A stretch of 64,000 bases of DNA from the NCBI RefSeq assembly GCF_011045215.1, contig NZ_CP049201.1; one strand, given 5' to 3'. The position numbers and the translations under genes are program-made. The stretch's first letter is position 1. Each line of letters opens with the position of its first letter. This DNA is from Escherichia coli (GTDB lineage Bacteria > Pseudomonadota > Gammaproteobacteria > Enterobacterales > Enterobacteriaceae). Below are positions 48,112 through 49,464 of this stretch, in pieces. The notes beneath the pieces are model-generated. The model was given only the letters and a program-made list of their open reading frames with translations, did not search any database and was not told where the DNA came from.

Positions 48112-49464
48112 TTATGGGTTTAACTCAAACTGTTCCCCGTTTATTAATTTTCGCAATAAGTCAAGTGCCTCAGATGAGTATTTTCCGACACCACTTTTCC
48201 CAGATTTAATGAAAACATGATAATTGTTGTCTGATGCTTTAATGTTGAAGTCGGTTAGTTTTCTTAATTTTTCGAATTCTTGATTAACATAGTGCCACGA
48301 TCCCATGTCGAGAATCCTTGCCAGATCAGACATTGTATATGGGAAACTAGCATTTAGTGCCTGCCCATTATTGAGTTCAGCGATACCATACATTTTTGCT
48401 AATGCATCATCATGCTCTGCAATATTGCGGAACATCTCAAAATCGTATGGAAGTTCTTGTTTAACAAGGGATTCTGATGCGAATGTGTACGTTCTGGCTA
48501 GAAATGCACGCACAAGTTTTGGATTAACGCTAATTTCCGGTGTATTAGATGATAACGCATCAAAAATCCAACCAAAATTATTTGCGTATATCACCTTGAT
48601 TCGAACGCTTTTATTCTCACCAACACCGATTAGCAATTCCTTTTGATGAGAACCAGTGGCCTCGCAGTCCTTACTGAAGGAGACAAGATAAATATTTGGA
48701 ATCAATGCATTATTGGGAGCGATGATTTCATCTATATCAGAGAGAATTGCCTTTATGTTTTCATCATTGATACTGTACCCAAAGAAAAACAAGGGGTGTT
48801 CAGCAAAATATGTTAGCAACTTAGCACTGATATATTTCTTACGTTTATAGAAATCAACATAATCTTCATTTGTAATAACAATACTTTCAACTTCATGACT
48901 GCTACCATGAATTTTCATGATTTCGCCATAAGATGAATAATTCACTTTAACAACGTTATGACCAACTATTGCCTGATAATTGTCAAATATTTTTTCTAAT
49001 GTGTCGTCATAATTTGTTGTGATTATTGCATGAGGTTTTACTTTCCTTAATTTCTGAACTTCCTCTGTATATTCCATGTTCGAGAAATCAACGGAGTTTG
49101 ATAATTCATTCAGAATGGATGCAATTTCATGCTTAATATAAATATCTTTTGGAGTCGTTCCTTCAAAGTATGTCTCTGGATAGCGATCCTTGCCATCATC
49201 CCAAGCCCATTCAGCATAGAAGTCACAAAAATCGCTAGCAATCAAAGGTTTGTTATCACCCTTTGTTTGGCTGTAGTAACCATAAGGGCGTTTGATCAAG
49301 GGGCATATTTCCGCTAGTTGCTTTAATAGACCTTCCCAGTCAGGCGCTTTTATATATCGTTGTGAAATACCTGCACCCATGAATAAAATGGGTTGGACTT
49401 GTAAGTTTTCAAGGCAAGATTTAACATCTTCGATTATTTCTTCTTGATATTCCGTAAAGTCCAT
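48112..49464 (-). CDS. SIR2_2-domain protein (predicted NAD+-consuming defence effector) with uncharacterised ~190-aa C-terminal domain
   Basis: 450-aa ORF with RBS; motifs LFMGAGIS (res 27-34), ITTNYDD (147-153), KIHGS (184-188), FFGYS (227-231) typical of defence-associated SIR2-like domains such as the ThsA/DSR N-termini; ~35% GC. Confidence 0.75.
   Translation of the reverse strand: MDFTEYQEEIIEDVKSCLENLQVQPILFMGAGISQRYIKAPDWEGLLKQLAEICPLIKRPYGYYSQTKGDNKPLIASDFCDFYAEWAWDDGKDRYPETYFEGTTPKDIYIKHEIASILNELSNSVDFSNMEYTEEVQKLRKVKPHAIITTNYDDTLEKIFDNYQAIVGHNVVKVNYSSYGEIMKIHGSSHEVESIVITNEDYVDFYKRKKYISAKLLTYFAEHPLFFFGYSINDENIKAILSDIDEIIAPNNALIPNIYLVSFSKDCEATGSHQKELLIGVGENKSVRIKVIYANNFGWIFDALSSNTPEISVNPKLVRAFLARTYTFASESLVKQELPYDFEMFRNIAEHDDALAKMYGIAELNNGQALNASFPYTMSDLARILDMGSWHYVNQEFEKLRKLTDFNIKASDNNYHVFIKSGKSGVGKYSSEALDLLRKLINGEQFELNP

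Follow-up and report, generated by a model that had tools for sequence, protein, structure and literature searches.

A 64,000-nucleotide stretch of the Escherichia coli contig NZ_CP049201.1 (the window) carries a gene for a SIR2-family protein, referred to here as the SIR2 gene and the SIR2 protein (Table 1). The protein combines an immune-type SIR2 domain, in which the catalytic residues are intact, with a small C-terminal winged-helix tail. We propose, with a probability of slightly more than one half (about 0.55), that it is a single-gene abortive-infection system, in which the SIR2 domain is an enzyme hydrolyzing nicotinamide adenine dinucleotide (NAD+), i.e. an NADase, and the winged-helix tail is its sensor or regulatory module. 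In this proposal, the N-terminal 305 residues would be the immune-type NADase and the C-terminal ~110 residues, comprising a linker and the winged helix, would form the regulatory or sensor part. The enzyme would be held inactive in uninfected cells. During infection the winged-helix module would directly bind a phage-derived cue, either some feature of a nucleic acid or a protein of the phage, and this binding would change the oligomeric state of the protein. The SIR2 domains would then hydrolyze NAD+ and halt both the infected cell and the phage. The family is best called another immune-type SIR2 which is novel in its winged-helix tail, and a specialist would not be surprised by a SIR2 defense protein as such.

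The open reading frame (ORF) of the SIR2 gene is uninterrupted and is clearly a genuine gene, with a GAGG Shine-Dalgarno sequence 8 nucleotides 5' of its ATG. A scan for promoters and terminators yielded nothing exceeding the shuffled expectation. RefSeq records of E. coli C and strain 81 contain the identical protein, WP_023317204.1, under the name “SIR2 family NAD-dependent protein deacylase”. The copy in E. coli C (NZ_CP020543.1; locus L001, 14714-16066) is intact, and strain S43 carries a copy of the gene which is 100% identical. Full-length homologs are 450-457 amino acids long, share 43-88% identity with the SIR2 protein and are conserved from end to end. They were found in Enterobacterales, Vibrionaceae, Acinetobacter, Psychrobacter, Thioalkalivibrio, Paenibacillus, Cohnella and Scalindua, and the family apparently also occurs in haloarchaea.

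Pfam recognizes one domain in the whole protein, SIR2_2 (PF13289), at residues 146-262 (48679-49029; E 1.5e-23). In an AlphaFold2 model built on 40 sequences, with a mean predicted local distance difference test (pLDDT) of 80.9, the Rossmann-type SIR2 fold runs well beyond this envelope. The sheet extends via strands at residues 254-263, 276-282 and 285-294, which are followed by a helix at residues 298-305. The pLDDT is 85-95 across most of residues 1-200 and lower and uneven at residues 200-305. Foldseek searches of PDB returned defense NADases as all of the top matches, namely DSR2, KomC of the Kongming system and ThsA (E 1e-9 to 1e-8), and the alignments to the isolated SIR2 domains of DSR2 and KomC cover ~320-335 columns. 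Residues G30, G32, N151 and H186 are invariant in 40 homologs spanning the 43-88% identity range, and chains of the DSR2 H171A mutant matched the SIR2 protein 4.3 bits below the wild type. We infer from this set of residues and structural relatives that the domain is active as an NADase. Among defense profiles, the best match was to the PADLOC candidate PDC-S25 (E 4e-77, or 4.1e-77 for PDLC04968; 258 bits). Further matches were found with the profiles of ThsA (E 2e-17, 61 bits, residues 128-249), LmuA (E 5e-14, 50 bits, SIR2 core only) and Dsr1 (E 1e-7, 28 bits).

SIR2 folds are known to support deacylation and ADP-ribosylation besides NAD hydrolysis. The RefSeq product name thus agrees with another possibility, that the protein is an ordinary NAD-dependent protein deacylase or an ADP-ribosyltransferase which modifies a cellular or DNA-associated target and has no role in immunity; a domain of a DNA-binding type could then steer the enzyme to chromatin-like targets. 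We consider this very unlikely. The domain belongs to SIR2_2 and not to the classical SIR2 family, and its close structural matches are all defense NADases. Since its four cysteines are scattered and form zero CxxC pairs, the protein is without the zinc module of classical sirtuins. The gene is also restricted to 4.9% of E. coli genomes, in which it occupies two variable loci and has copies disrupted by insertion sequences (IS), and it occurs in prophage and integrase-rich mobile settings. A published phylogeny places the known antiphage SIR2 proteins in a clade apart from housekeeping sirtuins. As a RefSeq name, “NAD-dependent protein deacylase” is probably misleading.

Table 1. Features of the SIR2 gene and its upstream region, in window coordinates.
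Feature	Residues	Position	Strand	Basis
SIR2 gene, complete coding sequence	450 amino acids + stop	48112..49464	minus	ORF list and RefSeq annotation
SIR2 (SIR2_2 / immune-sirtuin) catalytic domain	1-305	48550..49464	minus	AlphaFold2, Foldseek, Pfam
Glycine-rich NAD-binding loop after strand 1	G30-A-G32	49369..49377	minus	Invariant glycines; aligns to DSR2 FVGAGVS
Catalytic asparagine (TTNYD)	Asn151	49012..49014	minus	Invariant; aligns to DSR2 ITTNYD
Catalytic histidine (KIHG)	His186	48907..48909	minus	Invariant; aligns to DSR2 KVHG
Conserved helix 315-330 and low-confidence helical linker	306-366	48367..48549	minus	Conservation, pLDDT, profile alignments
C-terminal winged-helix domain	367-441	48142..48366	minus	MerR/RacA/Par/excisionase type
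Co-traveling upstream stretch, ~210 bp		49465..49674	minus	BLASTN and alignment to the second allele (L010, 5798-6000)

The boundary between the catalytic domain and the tail was placed using several lines of evidence. Helix 315-330 contains the invariant residues P315, R324, T325 and Y326, and similarity to PDC-S25, phrog_2695 and the Bacillus prophage protein BC1912 reaches residues 326-338. Since the SIR2 fold continues to ~305, the homology to 326-338, and P315...R324-T325-Y326 are invariant, the family-specific part can be narrowed to residues ~339-450 (~110 amino acids). The pLDDT falls below 50 at residues 322-365 of the full-length model, and the first ~28 residues of the family-specific part share this low confidence (<50).

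For residues 367-441, the full-length model and a second AlphaFold2 run, restricted to residues 306-450, each gave a pLDDT of ~90. This domain begins with a short strand, continues with two helices, the second of which is longer, and a beta-hairpin forming the wing, and ends in a further helix; this is the strand-helix-turn-helix-hairpin arrangement of the MerR/excisionase type. Its best structural matches were P1 ParA (6.8; 86 / 4.2 A), the DNA-binding domain of RacA (6.4; 57 / 2.0 A) and the DNA-binding domain of pSK1 Par (6.2; 51 / 2.1 A). MerR-family regulators, GlnR/TnrA, excisionases and small-terminase N-domains gave lower values (4-5.5; mostly 47-59, up to 66). We are confident, on the strength of these models, that the tail consists of a short linker followed by a winged helix of ~75 residues, which belongs to the MerR/excisionase class and thus has a familiar fold.

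A preliminary description of this gene, made from its sequence, had likened the N-terminus to that of ThsA and had reported an unassigned, possibly novel C-terminal domain of ~190 residues starting at ~260. The motifs on which it relied, LFMGAGISQRYIKAPDWEGLLKQLAE (27-52), TTNYD (149-153), KIHGS (184-188) and FFGYS (227-231), are all present, and the N-terminal half is indeed a SIR2 domain of the same class as that of ThsA. However, its closest relative is PDC-S25 (258 vs 61 bits), and the GxG...W..LL start which had been taken as a mark of ThsA occurs in SIR2_2 proteins generally and can be aligned just as well to DSR2. Judged by these profile comparisons, the ThsA resemblance holds solely as common SIR2_2 membership. 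The C-terminus indeed evades assignment by sequence: the tail has no Pfam match even at E<=10, the best hit of its profile among PDB sequences was only E 0.087, and the best among PHROGs only E 0.13. Its extent, however, is ~339-450, and a linker and a small winged helix of a well-known fold class stand in place of the large novel domain. The earlier view that the tail is not a SLOG domain agrees with our results, since no ThsA chain was among the top 60 structural matches of the tail and the ThsA profiles stop by residue 252.

The tail is nearly as conserved as the catalytic domain, with a mean column identity of 0.59 vs 0.64. Its invariant residues are N371, W390, (K409), N413, Y415, H416, K428, Y429, S430 and L436. 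Those other than L436 sit in the loop preceding the hairpin and at both hairpin ends, and the invariant residues thereby cluster at the base of the wing.

Several points weigh against the proposed role of the protein and its tail. The putative recognition helix (390-404) varies, save for W390 and buried hydrophobic residues, and the winged helix has a net charge of ~0 (-5 to +6 in 31 homologs) and is not an obvious DNA binder. A sequence-specific reader of DNA would not be expected to show this pattern of conservation and charge among its aligned homologs. The pattern could reflect contacts with the backbone or structure of a nucleic acid, binding of a small ligand or of a phage protein, or an interface within the SIR2 protein itself. 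Since the linker has a pLDDT <50, the model does not fix where the tail lies with respect to the active site. E. coli C is a classical permissive host for many phages. Since it carries an intact copy of the SIR2 gene, any protection is probably narrow or conditional. In the literature, we found no experiment on the SIR2-winged-helix family, no paper describing this architecture and no paper mentioning WP_023317204. PDC-S25 itself is a computational candidate only and appears in the literature just as a label in one strain survey.

Another possibility is a minimal nucleic-acid-sensing NADase, whose winged helix would directly read a structural feature of invading DNA or a phage DNA-protein complex and whose SIR2 domain would be activated by DNA-templated assembly. 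Xis, small-terminase and Par proteins have DNA-binding domains which the tail resembles, and this points in the same direction, with packaging or excision intermediates as examples of what might be read. We regard this version as unlikely. If true, it would be a notable one-protein link from foreign DNA to NAD+ depletion, without an Argonaute, STAND or helicase partner.

The distribution of the tail was investigated with a profile built from residues 362-450, which was run on 1.84 billion representative proteins (E<=0.001). Just 195 proteins matched; 150 of these were listed, and nearly all of the listed ones carry the match at their very C-terminal end. The listed carriers are ~450-500-amino-acid proteins or shorter products which resemble N-terminally truncated gene calls. 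Of four outliers inspected, P0200 proved to be a spurious repeat protein and P0136 a protein with the usual SIR2-plus-tail architecture and an N-terminal extension; the other two, P0261 and P0143, are garbled fragments. A Foldseek search of the tail model against AFDB50 likewise returned SIR2 proteins or short uncharacterized proteins resembling fragments. We had considered that the tail could be a promiscuous sensor module and rejected this, since among the matches inspected it is confined to SIR2 proteins or their fragments, barring P0200. By the measure of these searches, the winged-helix tail is specific to one SIR2 protein family. The tail of bona fide PDC-S25 proteins is ~200 residues long and, as represented by BC1912, aligned to the winged-helix tail with an hhalign probability of 0.4%. 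The C-terminal modules borne by the PDC-S25-type SIR2 core are thus of two or more unrelated kinds, and sensors may have been exchanged between such cores in a modular fashion.

The window runs from gabD-glaH through a tRNA and ypjA into a variable island reaching towards ssrA. Members of the family were present in 264 of 5426 complete E. coli genomes (4.9%), as two alleles at essentially two chromosomal loci. The allele of this window occurs in 42 genomes and lies in the ypjA/ssrA island in those examined. The second allele (P0007), with ~74% DNA and 80% protein identity, occurs in 221 genomes and at the one locus read adjoins hipBA and an autotransporter gene. BLASTN between the two loci showed that the shared part comprises only the gene, 210 bp upstream and 128 bp downstream (47984-49674). 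Since the loci share the gene and its short flanks only, it can be viewed as a one-gene cassette, and as such it moves in islands, plasmids and prophages. Apparent IS insertions interrupt several copies of the second allele, and its fused or truncated copies indicate that the gene has been repeatedly inactivated in some lineages. Five E. coli homologs which looked like domain swaps (P0012, P0018, P0041, P0066 and P0025) were rejected as such after reading their sequences, which are really transposase-like or unrelated fusions or truncations.

Mobile surroundings were also found in other hosts. Contigs with Vibrio homologs are rich in integrase genes, and the neighbors of the Thioalkalivibrio homolog include an Eco57I-type enzyme, Mrr and ParE. 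The Acinetobacter baumannii homolog (49% identical; L012-L014, 7001-8359) lies within a prophage, directly after a Mu-F-like head morphogenesis gene and before ORF6N/AntA-type genes, which looks like a moron position typical of prophage-borne defense genes. In the RefSeq record of strain 81, a Kiwa system and a type I restriction R subunit are located further along the island, and the R subunit is also present in E. coli C. Such a patchy, mobile, island- or prophage-embedded and sometimes disrupted pattern is typical of defense genes. The phylogeny cited above found neighborhoods of antiphage SIR2 proteins to be 12-fold enriched in defense systems. In Paenibacillus sp. KACC 21273 (L008, 7718-11198), a RelA_SpoT-domain protein (437 amino acids) and an ABC/AAA-type ATPase (579 amino acids) are encoded directly downstream of the homolog; this pair could be another defense or toxin module in the islet.

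No neighbor was common to the E. coli, Vibrio, Paenibacillus, Thioalkalivibrio, Acinetobacter and Cohnella loci. HerA, LmuB/C, Argonaute and STAND genes were absent among the neighbors scanned or annotated, and no such domains are fused to the SIR2 protein. The match of the ThsA profile to the SIR2 core (E 2e-17) and the ThsA structures among the fold matches could also suggest an orphan or split Thoeris-like effector, in which the tail would receive a nucleotide messenger from a TIR or other synthase encoded elsewhere. The invariant polar and aromatic residues N371, W390, N413, Y415, H416, K428, Y429 and S430 could then line a small-ligand pocket. The preliminary description had raised the same alternative, in the form of a TIR-domain gene elsewhere in the genome. 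No TIR/ThsB gene was found among the scanned neighbors, in the RefSeq annotation of the island or at the seven loci in other taxa, the whole genome not having been searched. Considering as well that seven other genomic settings share no conserved neighbor and that a one-gene cassette moves between loci, we find a Thoeris-like effector highly improbable. Because there is no conserved signal-making partner, direct recognition of a phage component appears likelier than sensing of a second messenger, as in the single-gene defense proposed here.

An ankyrin-repeat gene (50353-51357, minus strand, 334 amino acids) lies upstream of the SIR2 gene. It is present in 51 genomes and has a weak PADLOC match to the candidate PDC-M72A (E 6e-5). 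The preliminary description had alluded to a gene pairing. A pairing of the SIR2 gene with its ankyrin neighbor was rejected, since the ankyrin gene is missing at the second-allele locus read and lies outside the shared segment. No ankyrin counterpart was found beside the homologs in Vibrio, Paenibacillus, Thioalkalivibrio, Acinetobacter, Cohnella and another genome. Upstream proteins of 333 amino acids in Cohnella and a second genome were considered as counterparts and discarded, the three proteins being unrelated (E 0.48 and 0.76). The adjacency is one of island linkage. Several ankyrin-repeat genes were observed on the island in E. coli C and strain 81 (L001, 19375-21614; L002, 25084-27826), which is unusual, ankyrin-repeat proteins being uncommon in E. 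coli.

The stretch directly upstream of the SIR2 gene travels with it and presumably holds its promoter and 5' leader. It is 84% identical between the E. coli alleles (264 columns, reaching ~25 bp into the gene) vs ~74% for the gene, and contains a near-identical block of 47 nucleotides, GAAGATTTCTGAGAAA.GCAA.TAACTTCAATGATATTATATACAAA. Better conservation upstream than in the coding sequence suggests a conserved promoter, operator or leader. No Rfam family matched the leader, and no conserved palindrome or inverted repeat was found in the upstream region; a hairpin traced by eye is not kept in the second allele and was discarded. About 890 bp between the SIR2 and ankyrin genes (49465-50352) are without an annotated gene in most RefSeq records. 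Short ORFs of 67 amino acids (50100-50303) and 61 amino acids (49895-50080) are present there, and the E24377A and MIN11 records have a “hypothetical protein” somewhere under a 4.1-kb query spanning this interval.

A conserved operator would fit yet another explanation, in which the winged helix is a DNA-binding autoregulator or a tether and activation proceeds via another part of the protein, such as the SIR2 surface or helix 315-330. As an autoregulator it would repress the promoter of the SIR2 gene, and as a tether it would keep the enzyme on DNA. The N-terminal winged helix of P1 ParA autoregulates the par operon, and the closest folds to the tail include P1 ParA and MerR-type regulators. 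The upstream identity and the 47-nucleotide block would agree with such a role. The missing palindrome, the variable recognition helix and the uncharged domain argue against it, as does the invariable fusion of the domain to the enzyme, the domain never occurring as a separate regulator. We consider an autoregulator or tether unlikely.

In the mechanism proposed here, the activation step is modeled on DSR2, ThsA, KomC, Avs5 and FAM118B and would probably involve a shift between oligomeric states. Published accounts describe sensor domains located C-terminal to SIR2 which control DSR2 and ThsA, and, in several immune SIR2 proteins, activation by formation of filaments or oligomers. SIR2 NADases are a recurrent effector module of bacterial immunity, with human relatives, and the systems differ in how the effector is switched on. 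The family reported here is compact (450 amino acids) and self-contained, and occurs in Proteobacteria, Firmicutes and Planctomycetes and in ~5% of E. coli genomes. If it is defensive, few SIR2 immune proteins would be smaller, and it may prove useful as a tractable model of a small sensor domain gating a SIR2 active site.

Other features of the window were also observed. In the intervals 56152-60097 and 61821-63451, IS21 istA/istB genes (56152-58591) and an IS4-family transposase gene (58682-60097) adjoin a MobP-type relaxase gene (61821-63050). An AlpA-like helix-turn-helix gene (53047-53286) and a phage-O-like helix-turn-helix gene (54315-54878) are also present, and this region looks like a decayed mobilizable island. 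A tRNA-Ser(GCT) gene precedes a tandem array of four tRNA-Arg(ACG) genes spaced 276 bp apart (6534-7534); this cluster looks ordinary for E. coli and has no relation to the SIR2 finding.

Comparison with known systems shows which parts of the SIR2 protein are shared and which are its own. By sequence, the closest relative of the catalytic domain is PDC-S25 (PDLC04968/PDLC04967; PHROG 2695), likewise a single gene with the same SIR2 subtype and a location in mobile elements or prophages. Residues 10-338 of the SIR2 protein, including the post-SIR2 helix, match positions 10-332 of the 517 in the PDC-S25 profile with 258 bits, leaving the C-terminal ~185 positions unmatched. In contrast, BC1912, a PDC-S25 member from the Bacillus prophage phBC6A51 which is 32% identical across residues 18-326 of the SIR2 protein, covers profile positions 9-515 with 590 bits. 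PDC-S25 proteins are ~520-540 amino acids long and have a ~200-residue C-terminal region unlike the winged-helix tail. Defense-annotation tools may nevertheless call this gene PDC-S25 despite its differing tail.

ThsA of type I Thoeris (SIR2-SLOG) resembles the SIR2 protein in size (~450-480 amino acids), in its N-terminal SIR2_2 NADase with the Asn/His pair and in having a C-terminal regulatory domain. It differs in that this domain is a SLOG, whereas the SIR2 protein has a winged helix and no SLOG or Macro domain, in its ThsB/TIR partner, none of which was found here, and in a score which is a quarter of that of PDC-S25. SIR2-HerA, Lamassu (LmuA-SIR2), SPARSA and Avs5 have obligate partners or fusions (HerA, LmuB/C, short pAgo and a STAND NTPase, respectively), which were not found for the SIR2 protein. 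A single-gene Sir2-like system of P4 satellite hotspots was considered as the same family and is probably different, the E. coli copies of the SIR2 gene being at essentially two chromosomal loci.

The winged helix itself has no detectable sequence similarity to the MerR, RacA, pSK1 Par, P1 ParA N-terminal and excisionase domains. Compared with MerR and excisionase domains, it is neutral and has a variable recognition helix and an invariant N-x-Y-H ... K-Y-S signature. It is fused to an enzyme, whereas domains of the MerR/excisionase type are part of regulators or partition modules.

By analogy, the SIR2 protein would work most like the DSR-type single-protein defenses. In DSR2 and DSR1, an N-terminal SIR2 NADase is joined to a C-terminal sensor to which a phage component binds directly, and these proteins were the best sequence and Foldseek matches among solved structures, with only the SIR2 core aligning. 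The two families differ in that DSR proteins are ~1000-1250 amino acids long and have large helical MID/CTD regions, whereas the non-catalytic part of the SIR2 protein is a winged-helix region of ~110 residues; accordingly, the NCBIfam model of Dsr2 (NF041819) gave 18.8 bits against a cut-off of 1400 bits.

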